Counted from the stretch's first letter, positions 175 through 39,332 are shown. The stretch is 64,000 bases of DNA from an uncultured Candidatus Saccharibacteria bacterium (GCA_964574655.1 CAZNOH010000003.1:58149-122148), one strand, 5' to 3'. Notes: generated from the sequence alone by a model not told the origin. Numbers and translations are program-made.

Positions 175-1920
175 TTATTTTAATCCAATCGCAAAATAAA
201 TATTTTCCGCCCACAAATTAGAAGTTGTATAAACTAGAGTATTCTTCTTCTCAAATAAATTGGCCTTCAGAATCTTCCATTCATCATCATTATAAAAATA
301 CTTTAATCTTAAATTCTTTTCTTTAGCAAATCTGTTTCTCTTTTTTAAATTTTTAAACTCTTTTTGGGTATACTTAAAAGTCAATTTTAATTTATAAATT
401 TTTCCTGAATACTTATCTAAACTATTATTCAGTTTAATATATCTTTTTAAGAAATCAGTTGTTAACTGGCTAGCATTAAAATATTTTTTATACTTCTTTA
501 CTTGTAAATAATATTTAGTCTTTTTTAATTCTTTCGGATATTTGGTAAATTTTAAAGTTAAATTATTTCCATAAAGTTTTCTGTTCTCTTTTATCAAAAC
601 CTCTTTAGACTTAGCTTTTTTTGTAACAAATTTATTAGCATAAATACTTTTTCCGCTCAAGCTAATTATTGTTGTCGCATGATCTGGATCGTTAGAAGTA
701 ATTGTCAAACTTGCTGTTTTTGATCCTGAAGTTTGCGGTTCAAAAACAACACCAACAGTACAATTTCCTTGCGGCAAAACTGCTTGATTAGAACAATTAT
801 CATCTTCCAAAATAAATTCATCGCTATCAGACTCTATTTGGCTTAAATTCAAATTTACTGTTCCTTGATTAGTAATAGTTAAGATTTTTTCTTTTTTCTC
901 GCTCGCCAAAGTTCTGGCAAAATAAAACGAAGAATTTGAAACAGAAATTATTGACTGTTGTTCAACAAAATTACCAGCTACATAAGGCTGATTACCAACA
1001 CTAATTGTATCAATTACTGTATTTGTTAAAGTGTCAATAACTAAAACATTATTTGTATCCAAATTTGCAACGTAAACTTTTGTTCCTAAATAATTAGATG
1101 CAATTCCCCATGGACCATCCCCAACTGGAATTGATGCTACTTCCAAATTATTAGCAGTATTGATTACCATGACTTCATCAATAGTATCATTAGCAACATA
1201 AAGTAAACTGCCAGAAGGATTTAATGCCACGCCAATCGGACCGCTCAAGACGCCTGTGCTAATAGTTGACAACAACAAATCACTGCTAGTATCAATTACT
1301 GAAATATAGTTGCTGCCTGTTGCCGCCACATATAATCTAGTGCCTGAAGAATTGATCACTGCATCATGGAGAAAATTTCCTGCTCCGCTTATTGTTTTTA
1401 TTACTGAATTTGTACTTAAATCAACAACAGAAACATCTCCGCCATTAAAATTAGCCGCATATAATTTTGTTCCTTGTAGATTGATTGCTAATCCTGTCGG
1501 CGTATTTCCAACAGTTATTGTTGCTTCTTGCGTGTCATTCGCTACATCAATCACTGCTAAATAGCCTGGCAACATTCCCATAGAAACATATGCTTTAGTG
1601 CCAGCTGGATTAAAAACAACTCCATAAGGCGAATCGCTTAAACTGATTGTCTTGGTCACAGATTTTGTCACTGTACTTATCACCGAAACACTTTTTGAAT
1701 TTACATTAGCAATATATACTTTTGTTCTGTCTGGACTGATTCCAACGCCAAACGGAAAATCTCCAACAGAAACTGTTTTTACTACATCATTTGTTGCTGT
1801 ATCAATTATTGAAACATCATCTGAAACTGAATTTGTTACATATGCATATGGACTTGCCCAAACCATTGCTGGCAAAAAAAACGCTCCCAAAATCGCCAAT
1901 AACAAATACCTTTTTTTCAT
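175..1920 (-). CDS. Secreted YVTN-type beta-propeller repeat protein with lysine-rich C-terminal domain
   Basis: N-terminal signal peptide (MKKRYLLLAILGAFFLPAMVWA). About 9 tandem ~40-aa repeats of the YVTN/YAxN form (YVTNSVSDDVSIIDTAT, LYVANDTIDEVMVINT...). C-terminal ~150 aa K-rich domain shared with the 37491..39332 protein. Confidence 0.6.
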   Translation of the reverse strand: MKKRYLLLAILGAFFLPAMVWASPYAYVTNSVSDDVSIIDTATNDVVKTVSVGDFPFGVGISPDRTKVYIANVNSKSVSVISTVTKSVTKTISLSDSPYGVVFNPAGTKAYVSMGMLPGYLAVIDVANDTQEATITVGNTPTGLAINLQGTKLYAANFNGGDVSVVDLSTNSVIKTISGAGNFLHDAVINSSGTRLYVAATGSNYISVIDTSSDLLLSTISTGVLSGPIGVALNPSGSLLYVANDTIDEVMVINTANNLEVASIPVGDGPWGIASNYLGTKVYVANLDTNNVLVIDTLTNTVIDTISVGNQPYVAGNFVEQQSIISVSNSSFYFARTLASEKKEKILTITNQGTVNLNLSQIESDSDEFILEDDNCSNQAVLPQGNCTVGVVFEPQTSGSKTASLTITSNDPDHATTIISLSGKSIYANKFVTKKAKSKEVLIKENRKLYGNNLTLKFTKYPKELKKTKYYLQVKKYKKYFNASQLTTDFLKRYIKLNNSLDKYSGKIYKLKLTFKYTQKEFKNLKKRNRFAKEKNLRLKYFYNDDEWKILKANLFEKKNTLVYTTSNLWAENIYFAIGLK

Positions 1921-2023: not shown

Positions 2024-2707
2024 TTATTTCTTTAATTCTTCTTCAATAATCTTCTCAAAAGCTTCATAAGGCTGTGCACCGACTATTTTTCTACCGTTAA
2101 TAAAGAATGCCGGTGTTCCGTCTACCCCAGCTGCTTCTCCATCAGCTAAATCTTTTTTAACTTCATCAGCAAATTTATTGCTATCCAGACATTCATTAAA
2201 TTTTGTTGCGTCTAATTTTAAATCAACAGCATATTTCTTTAAATCAGCAATTGTTAAAGCCTTTTGGTTAGCATAAAGCAAACCATGATAATCCCAAAAT
2301 TTTCCTTGCTCATCAGCGCATTGTGATGCTTCAGCTGCTTTTTGAGCATTCTTATGAATTGCTAATGGAAAATCTCTGTATACCAACTTCACCTTGCCTG
2401 CATATTTATCCATAATCTTTTTTAAAGTCGGCTCAACTTTTTGACAAAATGGACACTCAAAATCAGAAAATTCAATAATTGTTATTTTTGCATTGGAATC
2501 GCCTTTTACAGGATCATCATCAGCGCTCACGTTAACAACTGCCTCTTCATTAGCATTGACTGCTTGTTTTGGCTCGCCTTTTACATCATTGCCCACATCA
2601 CTACCCTTATTGCTAAAAATTATTGCACCTGCAATTATTGCCCCAGCAATAACAATTGCCAAAGGCATAAACATTGCACTAGACTTTCCTGATCTCTCTT
2701 CTGTCAT
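2024..2707 (-). CDS. Membrane-anchored DsbA-family thiol:disulfide oxidoreductase (thioredoxin fold)
   Basis: N-terminal TM helix followed by thioredoxin-like domain with CPFC active site (FSDFECPFCQK). Confidence 0.75.
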   Translation of the reverse strand: MTEERSGKSSAMFMPLAIVIAGAIIAGAIIFSNKGSDVGNDVKGEPKQAVNANEEAVVNVSADDDPVKGDSNAKITIIEFSDFECPFCQKVEPTLKKIMDKYAGKVKLVYRDFPLAIHKNAQKAAEASQCADEQGKFWDYHGLLYANQKALTIADLKKYAVDLKLDATKFNECLDSNKFADEVKKDLADGEAAGVDGTPAFFINGRKIVGAQPYEAFEKIIEEELKK

Positions 2708-2720
2708 AAAATTATTGTTA

Positions 2721-3467
2721 TTATTTTTTAGTTTTTAATTTGAATATAATAATCAACCCAACAACACCGATTAGAATAGACAACCATTGCGAAATTGTTA
2801 GGTTATAGTATCTTACATCAAAGCTTCTAAACATGTCAATAATTAAAAATCTAAATAAAGAATACCAGACTAAAAAACTAGCAAATATTATTCCATCAGT
2901 TTTAATCTTTTTTCTTAAGAACCAAAATATAATAAAAAATAATAAACATAATAATGATTCATACATCGCTGTTTCATGTCTAATAACACCATTTTCCATA
3001 TTAAGACCAAAAAACCAAGCTCTTTGCATTACAATGCCCAAATGGTCATGAATCATAAAACAACCGATTCTCCCAACAAACAACCCAAAAGATAAAGCAA
3101 TCACCAAAATATCAGCGATCTTCCAAAAATCTATTCTTTTTTTCCAGATATAAATAAAATCTAAAATAAAAGCTAAAAATAATCCGCCATAAAAAACCAT
3201 TCCGCCTTCCCAAACCTTAAAAATATCCCAAATATTTTTATATTCAGAAAAGTATTGTATTGCATAAAAAATTCTTCCTCCAACAAATCCGCCAATAAGA
3301 CTTAACAAAACTAAATTTAAGATATGGCCAGTATTTATTTTTCTTTCTTTTGCTAAATAATTAGCAACAAACCAAGCCAATACAAAAGCAAGAGCTTGAA
3401 ACAAGCCCCATACAAATATTTTAACAGGCCCTAAATTTATATACTCAAAAGTAAAATATGGAATCAT
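2721..3467 (-). CDS. lgt: Prolipoprotein diacylglyceryl transferase
   Basis: Polytopic membrane protein with Lgt-like motifs (GGRIFY; HETAMYES resembling the H-x-x-x-Y-E signature). VKOR was considered and rejected because there is no CXXC. Confidence 0.65.
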   Translation of the reverse strand: MIPYFTFEYINLGPVKIFVWGLFQALAFVLAWFVANYLAKERKINTGHILNLVLLSLIGGFVGGRIFYAIQYFSEYKNIWDIFKVWEGGMVFYGGLFLAFILDFIYIWKKRIDFWKIADILVIALSFGLFVGRIGCFMIHDHLGIVMQRAWFFGLNMENGVIRHETAMYESLLCLLFFIIFWFLRKKIKTDGIIFASFLVWYSLFRFLIIDMFRSFDVRYYNLTISQWLSILIGVVGLIIIFKLKTKK

Positions 3468-3550
3468 GCAAATGAATTATGAATCAAGAATAATGAATTA
3501 TGAATCTTTTTCGACTTTACAAACTTTATAACTTTAAAAACTTTATAAAC

Positions 3551-4429
3551 TCACAACAATACCAAAATTATTCCCATTATAACTAAAGCAATTCCCATAA
3601 TCAATTTTAATGTCTTGAGTTTTGATTCTTGCCACTCTTTCAACACTGCAATCTTTTTTCCAGCTAAAACCAAAATCCAAATTGTTATTAATGGCAAAAC
3701 AAATAATAAGTTATAAAGCAAAAGGTAAAAAATAATTCGCGCAATTCCTAAATTATCATGCATTATCTGAACAGATCCAACATACAAAGGCAAAGAACAA
3801 GGCATTTCAAATAACGTTACTAAAATTCCCAAAATAATCGTTGACGGAATGCTCGCCTTTTCCACAAATTTAGTCAACATCCATCTTCTTTTTTGCGAAA
3901 CTTCCAAAGAAAAACCCTTTCCATGCCACCAAAAATCTTTAATATTAATCAAGCCTGCAACAACAATAAAAAATGCCAAAACATATTTCAGATACAAAGA
4001 AACATCGCCAAAATAAGGCATTGTCACCAAAACATCGATAAATTTATAAAAAAACACACCAACTAAAAAATATGTTGAAAAGACAGTGATAATATAGATT
4101 CCTCCAATTTTCAAAATCTCTTTAAATTTTTTGCCATTATCCTCTTCTTCAGGATGTACAAAAATAATTAAATAACCTAACAACAAAATAATTAATCCAA
4201 TTGCGCATGGATTGATTCCATCAATCAAACCAGCGACTATTACTATTGACAAGGTTAATTGTTCTGCATTCAAATGCAACATTTGCCCAACATCACAACC
4301 AAAAATAACAATTTTTTGCGCCTTACAAGTTGCTTCTGCAGCCAAAGCAAAATTAGAAAAACTAGCAAATAGCAAGCAAGAAGCAATAACTAACAAAATT
4401 ATAAAATTTGTTTTTCTAAAATATTTCAT
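3551..4429 (-). CDS. CcdA/DsbD-family transmembrane thiol-disulfide electron transporter
   Basis: Multi-TM protein with one Cys in each of two half-repeats in a proline context (GINPCAIG and EMPCSLP), as in CcdA. Adjacent to the DsbA-like gene. Confidence 0.55.
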   Translation of the reverse strand: MKYFRKTNFIILLVIASCLLFASFSNFALAAEATCKAQKIVIFGCDVGQMLHLNAEQLTLSIVIVAGLIDGINPCAIGLIILLLGYLIIFVHPEEEDNGKKFKEILKIGGIYIITVFSTYFLVGVFFYKFIDVLVTMPYFGDVSLYLKYVLAFFIVVAGLINIKDFWWHGKGFSLEVSQKRRWMLTKFVEKASIPSTIILGILVTLFEMPCSLPLYVGSVQIMHDNLGIARIIFYLLLYNLLFVLPLITIWILVLAGKKIAVLKEWQESKLKTLKLIMGIALVIMGIILVLL

Positions 4430-4525: not shown

Positions 4526-6166
4526 TTATAAAATTTCTTCTCGCTTCTCTTTGATATACACAATCCAGTCTTCTATTATTTCAATCATTAATTGAAATGG
4601 GGCTTCAATCAAAAAATCCATTACAAAAATAAAAATATTAACTCTGGAAAAAGTATTTGAAATCCATCTGCCAAACCTTAAAATTGGCAAAGTAAATATA
4701 TCAAACAAAAAAGTAATAACATTCTCTTTTTCAGTTTGCAAGATTAATTCTCTAACAGATTGCCTCAATGACACTCCAAAGAAACAGACAATGCTAAATA
4801 ATACGATGAAAATAGCGCCTGAAACATAATTAAAATCTAATCTATGCAATGCCCAAATTATAAAACCAAAAGTCATTGAAAAAACAAGCAAATATAAAAA
4901 GGAAAAAATAAAATTAAAAATAAATTTTCTTTTTCTTAATAAAACTCTTTCCCTAACAAATATTTTTCTTTTTACATCATCATAAACAATTTCTTTTATG
5001 CCAGAAACTATTTTATCAGAATTCTTTTCTCCTGGCACTCGCACCAACAAAGCAACTAAAAATATCAAAAACGGCGGAATCAAAATATTTACTGTAAATG
5101 CCGAATAATTTATCAACGAAAGAAAAATCAATTCATAAGGCACTTCAATAATCAATGCCAACAAAATTTTTGTAAGCAAAATATAAATAACAGCCCGAAC
5201 AGCCTTGCGTCTTAATTTTATCTTAAATTCAGCATATTTTTCTAAACACACAGAACGCAATTTATCTTCCAAAGACAGAATATCAGGTGGCTGAAAAGGA
5301 TCAAATTCAATTGATGGTTCTGGCGGATTCAAAAATAATTCCTTTGCATTTTCCGGACTTTGATCAATAAAGCTTTTTAAAATTACAAATGGCGCAACGT
5401 ATTTTCTGACTAGCTGATATAATCTGTTCGACATTTTATGATTCAACTGTCGATCAATTCCCTCTTTTATTAAATCAATATCATTAGCAATTTTTTCAAT
5501 TGTCAAATATGACGGCTTATCAAACCAATTCGGAAAATGCAATCTAAACAGATGATAAGACAATATATCATCGTCTGACTTAATCAACGCGCGATGTATT
5601 GCTATATAAACTTGAATATCTTTTTCTCCTTCTCTAATTCCTTGCTGTTCCAAAGAAATCTTTTTCGCCAACATGTCATACATGCAATTCACCAAGGCTG
5701 ATTCCACTATTTTTGGTTTTAACAAATTATCAATTTCACAAGCTGCAATTGCCAACAACCACTCAATTTTTTTCGATGATCCAGGAACTTCTCTCTTTGC
5801 CAATTGATTGTTTAAGAAAATATATTTATTCAAGATACCGCCGATTTCATAAACAGTTTCTTCAGTCACGCTCATGTTTTCAAGATGCCTTGATCTGATT
5901 AGCTCTCTAACTAATGAATCTGCAATATTCCAAGCCTTGTTTTTATGGACAAATCTTCTTTTTATAATTCTCAAAATAGCGCTTTTTCTCAACAAATGTT
6001 CCTCCCGATAATCAACAGCTGTCCTAATTTTTTCATAGAAAAAAGACAGTGTTCCAATCACCTCATTGACTTTTATCAACGTTCCTTTTTTTTTCTTAGC
6101 CAAAGATGAAGCTTCTAAAAAAGCATCAAACAAATCATCGGCCCTTTTGGATAACCTTTTTTGCAT
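4526..6166 (-). CDS. Hypothetical protein with soluble N-terminal region and C-terminal polytopic membrane domain
   Basis: Long ORF, uniform AT-rich coding composition. About 300 aa hydrophilic then about 5 predicted TM helices. No recognisable motif. Confidence 0.5.
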   Translation of the reverse strand: MQKRLSKRADDLFDAFLEASSLAKKKKGTLIKVNEVIGTLSFFYEKIRTAVDYREEHLLRKSAILRIIKRRFVHKNKAWNIADSLVRELIRSRHLENMSVTEETVYEIGGILNKYIFLNNQLAKREVPGSSKKIEWLLAIAACEIDNLLKPKIVESALVNCMYDMLAKKISLEQQGIREGEKDIQVYIAIHRALIKSDDDILSYHLFRLHFPNWFDKPSYLTIEKIANDIDLIKEGIDRQLNHKMSNRLYQLVRKYVAPFVILKSFIDQSPENAKELFLNPPEPSIEFDPFQPPDILSLEDKLRSVCLEKYAEFKIKLRRKAVRAVIYILLTKILLALIIEVPYELIFLSLINYSAFTVNILIPPFLIFLVALLVRVPGEKNSDKIVSGIKEIVYDDVKRKIFVRERVLLRKRKFIFNFIFSFLYLLVFSMTFGFIIWALHRLDFNYVSGAIFIVLFSIVCFFGVSLRQSVRELILQTEKENVITFLFDIFTLPILRFGRWISNTFSRVNIFIFVMDFLIEAPFQLMIEIIEDWIVYIKEKREEIL

Positions 6167-6264: not shown

Positions 6265-7509
6265 TTAAACTTCGATATATCCCTTCTCCCAATTATCAAC
6301 AATCATTTTTTCCATCATTGTCTTACCACCCACATATTCATAAAAAATCTTATTCCATAAAGACTCTTGATGATGATAAAGATATTTGATCATTTCTTTC
6401 TGCTTTGCCAATCCCATCTCATTATCAATTAAATTAAAACCGATCAACTCATCCTCTAAATCTCCCTTGAAAAAACCTCCTACATAATTTAATCCTTCCC
6501 AAAAAGTGAACTCCAGTCCTTTATATTTAGCATCTAACTTTACCAATGATTCTTCAGCCTTAGACCAATGTATTGTTTCAGGATTGACATGTGGCTCAAA
6601 TAATCTAAAATCATTCTCATCGTCTTTTGCTAAATATCGCTGTACTATTCTAAAAAAACCGAATGGCAGTTTCTCGCTCAAAACATCTCCTCTTATTAAA
6701 GAAACTAAAGTCTCGCCAAAAACACTGTTTTCTTTGTGTTTTTCCAATAATTTAGTATAAAAAGGAATTTCGTTTAAATAATGCAAAATTAAAGAAAACA
6801 TTCTCAAAGTCTCGCCGCAAATTCCAGAAGAAATTGGAATAATAAAAATTAATCCTAATTCTTTCAAATGGCTGAGATTGTGATATTTTTTCTTAACAAA
6901 TTTCTGAGCAACTTTTAACCATTTTACATCTAGTACCATAATCTCAATATCACGGTATTCAAAATCAGAAGGTTTCAATTTTAAATAAGCCTTGCTAAAA
7001 ACATTATTCATCCAATCCCTTGATTCTACAAATCTTAATGCAGCGTAAACTTCTCTCCAATCTTCTTTTTCCAATAATTCTCGGGTGTTTTTATATTTTA
7101 AAGCCGACAAAATATTAGGTGGCGGATTTGTCAACAAAATTTCTTTTGCTTTATCTTTTTTAATAAAAAAACCATTCTTTTTATCAGTTATTTCTAAAGC
7201 CAAAGCTATTGCCTGATGACAACTTTCCTTTTTCTCACAATTAGGCTCGCCTAGTATTTCAAACAAATCCTTGTCATCTTTTTTCAATTTAGTAATAATT
7301 GCTTTATGGACATCAATCGCTTTGCTATTTTTAGGTACTTTTAAAATTCCCAATAGCTCTTTTATTCTAAAATTATTTTCAGCAATAATTTTATCCAAAA
7401 CCAAAGTTTTATTAAACTTCTTTTCCATCAATTCAACAGTTTTTAGAACAGTAATCTTGTCGGTCCTCAGAATTCTTGCAATTTTTTCAGCTGATATATG
7501 ATTAGCCAT
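6265..7509 (-). CDS. Hypothetical protein (414 aa, start trimmed to ATG outside the palindromic repeat)
   Basis: Long ORF. The track start at 7551 lies inside repeat element A. The internal ATG at 7507-7509 (MANHISAEK...) is more plausible. No recognised domain. Confidence 0.45.
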   Translation of the reverse strand: MANHISAEKIARILRTDKITVLKTVELMEKKFNKTLVLDKIIAENNFRIKELLGILKVPKNSKAIDVHKAIITKLKKDDKDLFEILGEPNCEKKESCHQAIALALEITDKKNGFFIKKDKAKEILLTNPPPNILSALKYKNTRELLEKEDWREVYAALRFVESRDWMNNVFSKAYLKLKPSDFEYRDIEIMVLDVKWLKVAQKFVKKKYHNLSHLKELGLIFIIPISSGICGETLRMFSLILHYLNEIPFYTKLLEKHKENSVFGETLVSLIRGDVLSEKLPFGFFRIVQRYLAKDDENDFRLFEPHVNPETIHWSKAEESLVKLDAKYKGLEFTFWEGLNYVGGFFKGDLEDELIGFNLIDNEMGLAKQKEMIKYLYHHQESLWNKIFYEYVGGKTMMEKMIVDNWEKGYIEV

Positions 7510-7526
7510 ATCTTTTTTATTACCAA

Positions 7527-7647
7527 TCACCAAGAAACAAGATACAAACAAATTTCAATACTCAATAACCAAAAAGCAAACTCGTCACTGTTTGGTTATT
7601 TTAATTTGGTTTTTGAATATTGTTTGTTTCTTGTATTTTGGTTATTT
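7527..7647. repeat. Palindromic MITE-like repeat element, copy A
   Basis: Imperfect inverted repeat with ~50-bp arms (caagaaacaagatacaaacaa ... ttgtttgtttcttgtattttgg). Shares sequence with 11561..11685 and 49563..49686. Confidence 0.6.
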
Positions 7648-9866: not shown

Positions 9867-9941
9867 TGGTACCGCCACGGAGAATCGAACTCCGGTTGTC
9901 AGGATGAAAACCTGATGTCCTAGCCACTAGACGATGACGGC
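9867..9941 (-). tRNA. tRNA-Glu (anticodon UUC), CCA encoded
   Basis: Manual fold of reverse complement: acceptor GCCGTCA/TGGCGGT, D-arm GTCT..GGAC, anticodon stem TCAGG/CCTGA with loop TTTTCAT (anticodon TTC), T-arm CGGAG-TTCGATT-CTCCG, 3' ACCA. Confidence 0.8.
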
Positions 9942-36135: not shown

Positions 36136-36621
36136 ATGAAAATAACCATTTGCGGCAGTATTGCATTTTATGATCAAATGCAAGAAATAAAAAATAAATT
36201 AGAAAAAATTGGGCATGAAGTAAAAATTCCGCCAAATCAAATTTTAAATAACCAAAAAAAATTTATTCCGGTTTCAAAGTATTATCAACTTAGAAAAACT
36301 AAAAATGAAAATTGGATTTGGAAAGAATTAGGAATCTGTATGAAAAATCATTATCAGAAAATTAAAAATTCTGATGCTGTTCTAATTTTAAATTATGATA
36401 AAAATAAAATAAAAAATTATATTGGCGGAAATACTTTAATAGAAATTGCCACAGCTTTTAATCTAAATAAAAAAATCTTTTTTATTTATCCAATACCAAA
36501 ATTATCTTATACCGAAGAAATCAAAGCCATGCAGCCAATTATTATAAATAACAACTTATCAAAAATATTAGACTATTCAATTAATTCTACAAAACAAAAA
36601 ATGCAATTGTTTAAAAATTAA
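36136..36621 (+). CDS. Hypothetical protein (possibly nucleoside 2-deoxyribosyltransferase-like Rossmann fold)
   Basis: MKITICGSIAFYDQM N-terminus typical of that fold. Weak. Confidence 0.3.
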   Translation: MKITICGSIAFYDQMQEIKNKLEKIGHEVKIPPNQILNNQKKFIPVSKYYQLRKTKNENWIWKELGICMKNHYQKIKNSDAVLILNYDKNKIKNYIGGNTLIEIATAFNLNKKIFFIYPIPKLSYTEEIKAMQPIIINNNLSKILDYSINSTKQKMQLFKN

Positions 36622-37490: not shown

Positions 37491-39332
37491 TTACCTACCA
37501 ATTACATAATATCTTTCTGAGAAATTAAACAGAGAATTCAGATAAATAGTGAAAGTATGATCTGTAGTATTCGGCGCAACCTGCAAATCTGCCCACTCCT
37601 TAGATTCAGAATTATAGTATTTCAAATATAAATCTTTCTCTTTCAGGCCTTTAACTTTTTTCTTCAAAACTTTAAATTCAGCCGTTGTATATTCAAAAAC
37701 TAATTTTAATCTAGTTTGTTTGTTTGACTTATATTTATTAAAATCAGTCGTCACTTTCCAATATTTTTTTAACAAATTATTTTTTGCATTCGCATAAAGC
37801 TTTGTATATTTCTTTTGTCTTTCTGCCAAAAAATATCTTTTAGTACTTTTAAATTTAGTTGGATATTTTTTAAAATTTAAATAATAATCCTTGCCATAAT
37901 ATTTTGTATTTTTTGTTTTAACTTTCACTTCATCGGTTTTTGTCGCTTTTTTGGTCACAAATTTTGGATTTCCGACATATTTAATAGCTTGTGAAACAAC
38001 TGCTGTCTCAGCATGCCAAGAATCTCTAAATTTTAGATAAATAGTTTTATTGCCTTTTTCCGAAGACAGTCTAAAAATTTTGTCCGCATTATAAGTCTCC
38101 CAAGACGCACCAACAAAATCGCTTTTCTCTGAAACAATCATTTCTGTTGGACTGCCTGTCAAAGAAGATTCAATACTAATGTTTCTATATGCGGAATAGC
38201 TTCGACCACTATTTATAGAAGTTGAAGAAACAGTTGGACCAGGAGTATAAGTATATTTCAAATCAGTTGGAGTTTTAAAATACGAAACATGTGTTTTATT
38301 ATTTGAATCAAGAAACAATGAAAATTGATTATAATAACCCAAAAGAATAGCCAAAGCAAAATTTCCAGATGTATCTAAAGTAGTATATGTCCATTGCCCG
38401 GAAAAATTAGTTGCATATTTTAATGTTAAACTTGTTAATTCATAATAAACAATTCGCACTGCATTATCACTGTCAACGCCGATAAAAGTATCATAACCTG
38501 ACTGATTAGAGGTATCTAAACTTGTTGCTACCCAAACTCCTGAAGAATTAGTAATGTATTTCAAATCAGCATTTGTTGCGTCAAGATAACTGATATGAAT
38601 TTTATCATTATTTCCAATTGCCAAAGACATAAAAGCGCCAACTGAATTAGAATTGTCTATAGTGCTAACAGACCAAGCACCACTTAAACTATTAGTTGCA
38701 TATTTTAAAGCAGTGTTAGTCACATCATAATAACCAATATGCACATTATTATTGCTATCTAGTGCAAGAGAACTATATTCTCCGACATTTCCATTGCTAT
38801 CTATCGTTATAATCACCCATGATCCAGAAACATTTGTTATATATTTTAAATCAAGATTCGTTGAATCATAATAGCTGATATAGGCCTTATTATTACTATC
38901 TAATCCCAAAGAAGTAATATTCGCCTGAAAAAGACCAACAGAAATAGTTCCAGAATTATCAATCGTCGTTACCACCCAAGATCCAGAAGAATTGGAAGCA
39001 TACTTTAAATTACTACTTGTATAATCAATGTAAGCAATATGAGCTTTATTATTGCTATCCATTTTGATTGATATTCCAAGACCAACATTCCCAACGCTAT
39101 CAATTGTTGTTGCTACCCAAGTGCCGCTTTCATTAGTAATATATTTCAAATCAGCATTAGCAGTATCATAATAAGCAATATGAACATAGCCATTATTATC
39201 AACTGCCACAGCATTCATAACACCAACATTGCCTGTATCCAATGTTGATGTTTGCCAATCCGCAGCCAAAACATTTTGACCAAAAATTAATAAACCAAAA
39301 ATAGCCACCAGAATTAATAATCCTTTTTTCAT
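37491..39332 (-). CDS. Secreted beta-propeller-type repeat protein (about 8 copies of a ~43-aa LKYATN repeat) with lysine-rich C-terminal domain
   Basis: Signal peptide. Repeats of the form NNxVHIAYYDxTNxxLKYATNxSGxWxxTTID. The C-terminal ~150 aa align with the C-terminus of the 175..1920 protein. Confidence 0.6.
   Translation of the reverse strand: MKKGLLILVAIFGLLIFGQNVLAADWQTSTLDTGNVGVMNAVAVDNNGYVHIAYYDTANADLKYITNESGTWVATTIDSVGNVGLGISIKMDSNNKAHIAYIDYTSSNLKYASNSSGSWVVTTIDNSGTISVGLFQANITSLGLDSNNKAYISYYDSTNLDLKYITNVSGSWVIITIDSNGNVGEYSSLALDSNNNVHIGYYDVTNTALKYATNSLSGAWSVSTIDNSNSVGAFMSLAIGNNDKIHISYLDATNADLKYITNSSGVWVATSLDTSNQSGYDTFIGVDSDNAVRIVYYELTSLTLKYATNFSGQWTYTTLDTSGNFALAILLGYYNQFSLFLDSNNKTHVSYFKTPTDLKYTYTPGPTVSSTSINSGRSYSAYRNISIESSLTGSPTEMIVSEKSDFVGASWETYNADKIFRLSSEKGNKTIYLKFRDSWHAETAVVSQAIKYVGNPKFVTKKATKTDEVKVKTKNTKYYGKDYYLNFKKYPTKFKSTKRYFLAERQKKYTKLYANAKNNLLKKYWKVTTDFNKYKSNKQTRLKLVFEYTTAEFKVLKKKVKGLKEKDLYLKYYNSESKEWADLQVAPNTTDHTFTIYLNSLFNFSERYYVIGR

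Follow-up and report, generated by a model that had tools for sequence, protein, structure and literature searches.

What is the strongly basic, lysine-rich segment that closes two otherwise different exported proteins of an uncultured Candidatus Saccharibacteria bacterium? The whole stretch of DNA analysed here, hereafter the window, comprises 64,000 nucleotides (64 kb; GCA_964574655.1 CAZNOH010000003.1:58149-122148). It carries on the minus strand an open reading frame (ORF) of 581 amino acids (aa) at 175..1920 (p1) and another of 613 aa at 37491..39332 (p2). An earlier note on this DNA had described on both proteins a common, strongly basic and lysine-rich C-terminal domain of about 150 aa, located behind different repeats and not recognised by its author, and had proposed that it is an envelope anchoring or sorting domain. 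As detailed below, this description of the domain holds in each of these respects. The domain defines a new family, so far restricted to Patescibacteria, bacteria of ultra-small size, and most likely serves to retain exported proteins at a negatively charged cell surface.

The C-termini of p1 and p2 are homologous. When p1 and p2 are compared by BLASTP, only one segment is significant; it pairs aa 399-552 of p1 with aa 427-584 of p2, with 42% identity and 58% positives (E=4e-18). All the remaining segments have E>2, which indicates that the N-terminal parts, with YVTN repeats in p1 and unrelated 'LKYATN' repeats in p2, do not share an origin. The Smith-Waterman score of the pair (236) is far above those of 1000 composition-preserving shuffles (64 +/- 10, maximum 106; z=17), so that the similarity reflects real homology and is not a by-product of lysine richness. 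In both proteins the domain proper begins with KFVTKKA. In p1 it covers aa 430-581 and the stop codon (175..633, minus strand; profile positions 8-166 match aa 427-579), contains 23% lysine, has a net charge of +29 and ends with ...IYFAIGLK. Its counterpart in p2 covers aa 457-613 and the stop codon (37491..37964, minus strand; profile positions 4-169), with 21% lysine, a net charge of +26 and ...RYYVIGR as its end. Tyrosine accounts for about 10% of both, whereas the N-terminal parts of the same proteins contain about 4% lysine and have a net charge of -13 to -16. Searching the window by tblastn did not reveal any third copy.

Neither Pfam (2025 copy), NCBIfam (June 2026) nor the PDB contains this domain family. 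When whole p1 and p2 were scanned, no model of Pfam-A (E<=1) or NCBIfam matched the domain region. For the isolated domains, a scan at E<=10 retrieved nothing but spurious matches below threshold (FapA, E=0.1; CBM_3, E=0.24; YliH, E=0.53), and the domain has no Pfam or NCBIfam match in any of the 56 family members presented below. SLH (PF00395) is accordingly not found in the whole proteins (E<=1), the isolated domains (E<=10) or the 56 members, nor do the choline-binding, CWB2, LysM, SH3b-GW and PG_binding profiles match in these scans. The same is true, on the domain of p1 and p2, the isolated domains and the 56 members, for the type IX secretion system's (T9SS) C-terminal sorting domain (CTD; PF18962/TIGR04183). 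The PF18962 model is present in the precomputed set, as it was detected in two homologues of the p1 passenger (P0115 and P0120). Profiles of LPXTG, PEP-CTERM or PGF-CTERM-type C-termini do not match p1 or p2, and none of the 56 domains holds a transmembrane-like stretch, their highest 18-aa Kyte-Doolittle hydropathy being 1.47. ZU5 (PF00791) matches neither p1 and p2 nor the isolated domains. Two profiles, one built from p1, p2 and one metagenomic relative (A1) and the other from a 43-sequence alignment of the domain (A3), were compared by hmmsearch (E<=10) with all PDB chain sequences; they retrieved no ZU5, GAIN or FIIND chain and no sequence relative. Searches of the literature yielded nothing relevant on a lysine-rich C-terminal domain in Patescibacteria, and the close orthologues are annotated as 'hypothetical protein' or by the name of their passenger domain only.

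The search of 1.84 billion representative proteins with the A1 profile led to the identification of 56 clusters (50% identity) at E<=1e-3, including 39 at E<=1e-10 and 10 at E<=1e-30. A word-index protein search with a single domain had found one relative only and, with the 43-sequence alignment, none, probably because lysine-rich words swamped its candidate list; it is the exhaustive search of representatives that revealed the family. In 53 of the 56 clusters, the domain ends 0-5 residues from the C-terminus, typically with a conserved last strand, [YF]F[AVTG]IG[LVIK]K-COOH. It is internal in the three others (P0035, P0036 and P0041), where it is followed by about 360-400 aa of propeller repeats (DUF5122/NHL); these three could result from gene fusions or from a genuine internal use of the module. 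Signal-peptide-like N-termini were recognized in 45 of the 56 by a hydropathy heuristic, used in place of SignalP. The 11 other members, which start in the middle of a repeat or at a non-ATG codon or are very short, look like N-terminal fragments.

The members share a common plan, in which a signal peptide is followed by a variable acidic passenger, an immunoglobulin-like (Ig-like) spacer and the basic domain. The family-wide medians are a net charge of +32 and 22% lysine for the domain, and a net charge of -14 and 4% lysine for the passengers. In eighteen members, a CHB_HEX_C_1/Fn3_assoc Ig-like spacer immediately precedes the basic domain. The passengers include YVTN propellers, with choice-of-anchor D (5-6 members), Reg_prop (5 members), FG-GAP (4 members), and DUF5122 and BNR_4 (3 members each). 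A GH18 chitinase-like enzyme (P0050), a metallophosphatase (Metallophos; P0022) and a CBM_4_9 protein (P0025) are each represented once. The choice-of-anchor D model NF012200 matches 5 of the 56.

This plan can be read in p1 from known models. A predicted Sec signal peptide (MKKRYLLLAILGAFFLPAMVWA|SP; 1855..1920, minus strand), called by the hydropathy heuristic and with a cleavage site read by eye, precedes a seven-bladed YVTN/YncE-like beta-propeller at aa 23-313 (982..1854, minus strand). The latter belongs to the YVTN repeat family TIGR02276 (210.4 bits over 7 stretches in the NCBIfam scan) and also matches PF21783 (YNCE) at aa 20-313 in the Pfam scan (57.3 bits for a cutoff of 27.1). Then comes an Ig-like spacer at aa 314-413 (682..981, minus strand), which belongs to choice-of-anchor D (NF012200; 52.9 bits for a curated cutoff of 45) and is matched by the Ig-like Cep192_D4/HYDIN_VesB models of Pfam at aa 324-423. 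Two close orthologues of p1 (P0060 and P0061) are annotated 'choice-of-anchor D domain-containing protein [Patescibacteria group bacterium]', and in other phyla, proteins with a passenger homologous to that of p1 terminate in a T9SS CTD (PF18962; P0115 and P0120) or in PGF-CTERM (P0079). The name 'choice-of-anchor' was given to surface proteins with alternative terminal anchors, LPXTG, PEP-CTERM or T9SS (bioRxiv 10.1101/2023.03.06.531300). Although p1 matches exactly the class of proteins that associate choice-of-anchor D with a YVTN propeller, this name covers the spacer; it leaves the basic C-terminal module unannotated, and this module would be a further 'choice' of anchor, previously unlisted.

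By contrast with p1, p2 has no Pfam or NCBIfam match anywhere in the protein. Its predicted Sec signal peptide (MKKGLLILVAIFGLLIFGQNVLA|AD; 39264..39332, minus strand), assigned by the same heuristic and also with a cleavage site read by eye, is followed by a passenger made of seven 'LKYATN' repeats at aa 24-361 (38250..39263, minus strand; limits from the repeat positions). Their consensus is '...DSNNKxHIxYYDxTNxxLKYATNxSGxW...' and their period, given as 43 aa in the earlier note, is in fact 47-54 aa. With seven repeats, it is plausible that this passenger is a beta-propeller. The spacer of about 95 aa that follows (aa 362-456; 37965..38249, minus strand; 'YTPGP...INSGRSYS...KTIYLKFRD...') matches no model. 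It is presumed to be an Ig-like beta-sandwich from its sequence pattern and from its position, which is equivalent to that of CHB_HEX_C_1 in paralogous carriers. Relatives (P0002, P0004, P0006 and P0012) are also unannotated, and P0018 alone gives a marginal match to BNR_4. The 'LKYATN' repeat seems not to have been described so far and may represent a distinct propeller family.

The A3 alignment reveals which residues of the basic domain are conserved. Twenty-four of its columns have at least 60% lysine or arginine while only 5 have at least 40% acidic residues. The most conserved positions (F33, P37, Y45, Y55, W70, F90, Y92, L100, L112, L114, W123, F151, I153 and G154) belong mainly to the core; lysines K44, K54, K67, K101 and K102 are also among the top positions, and the columns conserved at 75% or more contain only F, P, K, Y, L, W, N, I and G. 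Basic and hydrophobic residues alternate in the predicted strands (e.g., K85-L-K87-L and L112-x-L114-K115) and, joined to the DSSP string, this pattern suggests that the lysines face the solvent on the sheets. The GC content of the source genome is 33%. Since the basic columns are position-specific and the passengers contain only 4% lysine, the charge of the domain is a selected property and not an effect of AT-bias.

Structure prediction, which the earlier note had suggested as a check, gives a confident result. AlphaFold2, run on the 43 sequences of A3, predicts a beta-sandwich of about 12 strands and one helix (pLDDT 94, pTM 0.88). A prediction with three sequences was unusable (pLDDT 55), and the 43-sequence model alone was used. 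Foldseek searches of the PDB and BFVD retrieved nothing at E<=1e-3. Structures of ZU5/GAIN/FIIND and of DNAI7/Casc1 share 4-18% identity with the model, and these Foldseek matches are not significant; the predicted fold is at best a ZU5-like sandwich. The cleavage motif of ZU5/GAIN/FIIND domains, a histidine and then a serine or threonine nucleophile (HFS / HL|T / SF|S), has no conserved counterpart in A3. A semi-conserved 'HN' is absent from both p1 and p2.

Every cluster member with a source name comes from a 'Patescibacteria group bacterium', and a scan of genomes leads to the same picture. A degenerate DNA pattern for LK[KR]YWxxxT[ND][LF]xxY was searched in one genome per GTDB species; this pattern detects some 40% of the family members and has one match in the window. 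Fifteen loci were found, of which 10 are true members according to a hidden Markov model (HMM) check. These 10 are distributed over three metagenome-assembled genomes (MAGs), each of a 'Patescibacteria group bacterium', MAG122 (3 loci), STF1_73 (3 loci) and CSMAG_2461 (4 loci, which correspond to 6 carrier genes, three of them in tandem). The five other loci, in genomes of Firmicutes and Bacteroidota, are chance matches according to the same check. These MAGs harbour at least 3 carriers for MAG122, at least 3 for STF1_73 and at least 6 for CSMAG_2461. The other checks suggested in the earlier note were an HMM search of public databases for further carriers and an examination of their signal peptides; the search thus extends the family from two proteins to 56 clusters with at least three to six carriers per related MAG, and its members have either a signal-peptide-like start or a fragment-like one. 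In metagenomes, the pattern gave 8 further true loci, six of them from one sample, including one locus with three tandem carriers; the single match on a viral contig was false by HMM check. The domain is so far restricted to Patescibacteria.

Two contigs, one of MAG STF1_73 (L009) and one from JGI (L001), are syntenic with the window at 74-85% nucleotide identity. Tandem arrays of carriers were found at L007:794-4294 (three genes), L024:702-5971 (three genes) and L001:6843-10570 (two genes). The array of L001 results from a tandem duplication of the p2 gene, with the domain in both copies. Such arrays suggest local expansion of a gene family or diversification of the passengers. In four JGI samples (L001-L004), an in-frame TAA (L001:9992-9994) splits the orthologue of p2 into parts of 425 aa and 189 aa, the shorter of which holds the basic domain behind the last portion of the Ig-like spacer; next to it lies a tandem paralogue (L001:6843-8687) that is intact. 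Recoding or an alternative genetic code was considered and rejected, the codon being TAA and not TGA, and the population seems to have fixed a nonsense mutation. Around 12 carrier loci, no conserved neighbour gene, such as one encoding a dedicated sorting enzyme, was found beyond plain synteny.

What could such a domain do? The carriers have a Sec-type signal, and the module is terminal on unrelated acidic passengers, is preceded by Ig-like spacers, occurs in multiple and sometimes tandem copies, and has a conserved polycationic and aromatic surface but neither a transmembrane segment nor a sortase signal. These features lead us to favour, with about even confidence, an autonomous and folded domain of about 155 aa, a polycationic beta-sandwich, through which a Patescibacteria lineage retains Sec-exported proteins at the surface in a non-covalent manner. 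The carrier would be exported via Sec and its signal peptide cleaved. Through its conserved faces, rich in Lys/Arg and Tyr/Trp, the C-terminal sandwich would then bind a polyanionic component of the envelope of the producer, and the acidic passenger (propeller, glycosidase, phosphatase or similar) would be held outward on the Ig-like spacer. The candidate ligands are a wall polymer, either teichoic-acid-like or anionic in another way, and the head groups of anionic lipids. The choice-of-anchor D spacer of p1, as well as the YVTN homologues that end elsewhere in a T9SS CTD or PGF-CTERM, also fit an anchor. The ligand, the localisation and the targeting of the cell's own envelope are all what we infer from these features, and binding to an anionic wall polymer is proposed from the sequences. 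Several points weigh against surface retention. The predicted fold is unlike that of any established bacterial wall-binding module, the high lysine and tyrosine content could equally suit DNA, the walls of host cells or an acidic polysaccharide substrate, and the internal domains of P0035, P0036 and P0041 indicate that the terminal position is not obligatory, even though they are compatible with a binding module.

The same binding chemistry would apply if the domain was directed to an external polyanion. It would then be an adhesin or a lectin-like module, comparable to a carbohydrate-binding module (CBM), for teichoic acids or the capsule of a host during episymbiotic attachment, the matrix of a biofilm, extracellular DNA or a substrate that is an acidic polysaccharide, and the enzymes found among the carriers would suit this role. 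However, a single conserved module on very different passengers, most of which are non-enzymatic propellers, is what one expects of a shared address tag more than of a CBM specific to one substrate; its position after spacers of the 'choice-of-anchor' type points to an anchor, and no CBM family matches except for the spurious CBM_3. We consider this explanation unlikely, although it is the most probable of the rivals. Still less probable, in our opinion, is that the domain works like the T9SS CTD, as a signal at the C-terminus for secretion or sorting, which would be read by a dedicated machine, then cleaved or covalently attached. The almost constant location at the extreme C-terminus with a conserved last strand, the occurrence of a beta-sandwich on many types of cargo and in multiple copies per genome, and the T9SS CTDs carried by homologous passengers elsewhere are all in keeping with such a signal. 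However, neither PF18962/TIGR04183 nor any other sorting-domain model matches, no gene recurs beside the 12 loci beyond synteny, about 360-400 aa follow the domain in three members, and the domain, given its length of about 155 aa and its 24 conserved basic columns, is larger and far more charged than a recognition tag needs to be. Patescibacteria are also generally regarded as devoid of an outer membrane and of T9SS, which counts against this explanation. Thus, of the two functions initially proposed, anchoring or binding is favoured, given the terminal position in 53 of 56 clusters, the signal-peptide-like N-termini, the diverse acidic passengers, the conserved basic positions and the Ig-like spacer. 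A sorting signal is less likely than a binding module owing to the three internal members and the absence of a recurrent partner gene.

A ZU5-like reading of the predicted fold raises the question of an autoproteolytic or tethered-ligand domain that would cleave itself near its last strands, the fragments staying associated. This is very improbable, as the sequences of eukaryotic ZU5, GAIN subdomain B, FIIND and the C-terminal domain of DNAI7/Casc1 have no profile link with the basic domain, which has no conserved autoproteolytic motif; moreover, the latter is carried by exported bacterial proteins, a context that differs from that of ZU5/GAIN/FIIND. Finally, a genome that is AT-rich (33% GC) and a region with 22% lysine could evoke a compositional artefact, or a low-complexity lysine-rich tail, recently duplicated or recombined and without specific function. 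This is effectively refuted by the comparison with composition-preserving shuffles (z=17), the 56 diverged clusters with conserved core residues and position-specific basic columns, the confident AlphaFold2 fold, and the low lysine content of the passengers of the same proteins.

If surface retention is indeed its role, the basic domain is comparable to several known systems. SLH, CWB2, GW/SH3b (Listeria InlB/Ami), choline-binding repeats and LysM are likewise terminal modules found on many Sec-exported passengers and in multiple copies per genome, and the wall-binding modules of Gram-positive bacteria retain proteins at the surface via wall polymers, as the basic domain would do. GW modules are themselves basic and bind lipoteichoic acid. 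However, the basic domain has no sequence match with these modules and forms a single sandwich of about 155 aa instead of tandem short repeats. Its predicted ZU5-like sandwich also differs from the three-helix SLH, the toprim-like CWB2, the SH3 fold and the beta-alpha-alpha-beta LysM. The T9SS CTD of Bacteroidota (Por_Secre_tail, PF18962/TIGR04183) is also a terminal beta-sandwich on diverse secreted cargo, often located behind Ig-like or 'choice-of-anchor' spacers. Unlike it, the basic domain is about twice as long and polycationic, does not match its models, and no associated machinery was found near the 12 carrier loci. The domain would thus be a new family, with a fold that is new for this role, of a known functional kind.

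A large part of bacterial diversity belongs to the Patescibacteria, or Candidate Phyla Radiation (CPR), which live attached to other microbes, while the display of proteins at their surface is little understood. A tag for surface-retained proteins would allow the exposed proteome, candidate adhesins and host-acting enzymes to be read from metagenomes, for which the 43-sequence profile is a starting point. With it, the envelope-binding modules would gain a new fold and Patescibacteria an experimental handle, for instance domain-GFP as a probe of their cell surface. It is possible, if somewhat doubtful, that the domain constitutes a lineage-specific surface-display system of Patescibacteria. It would then be a new structural class of non-covalent anchor, the polycationic ZU5-like sandwich, marking in these uncultivated episymbionts an exposed 'surfaceome' that includes candidate host-interaction proteins, and would extend the 'choice of anchor' beyond LPXTG, PEP-CTERM, PGF-CTERM and the T9SS CTD. 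If it is only a generic polyanion binder, the outcome would be a useful annotation of a domain family without conceptual advance.

The neighbouring genes of p1 and p2 are given no functional weight here. The p1 gene is the last of a same-strand run whose other genes (2024-4429, minus strand) form an envelope protein-maturation cluster. This cluster encodes a multi-pass membrane protein that is CcdA/SfLAP-like and has paired Cys motifs (3551-4429, minus strand), Lgt (2721-3467, minus strand) and a membrane-anchored DsbA-like thioredoxin (2024-2707, minus strand). The p2 gene is located between the genes of PrsW and HSP20. Three other ORFs of the window have no Pfam match. Two are on the minus strand, one of 546 aa with a multi-transmembrane C-terminal half (4526-6166) and one of 428 aa (6265-7551); the third, of 161 aa, lies on the plus strand (36136-36621) between a Cupin-like gene and that of PrsW. 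The gene lists of the syntenic JGI loci L001-L003 are empty at the gap that matches this last ORF, which may therefore be an insertion in the genome of the window. The sole Rfam match in the window is a tRNA gene (RF00005, 59 bits; 9870-9941, minus strand).
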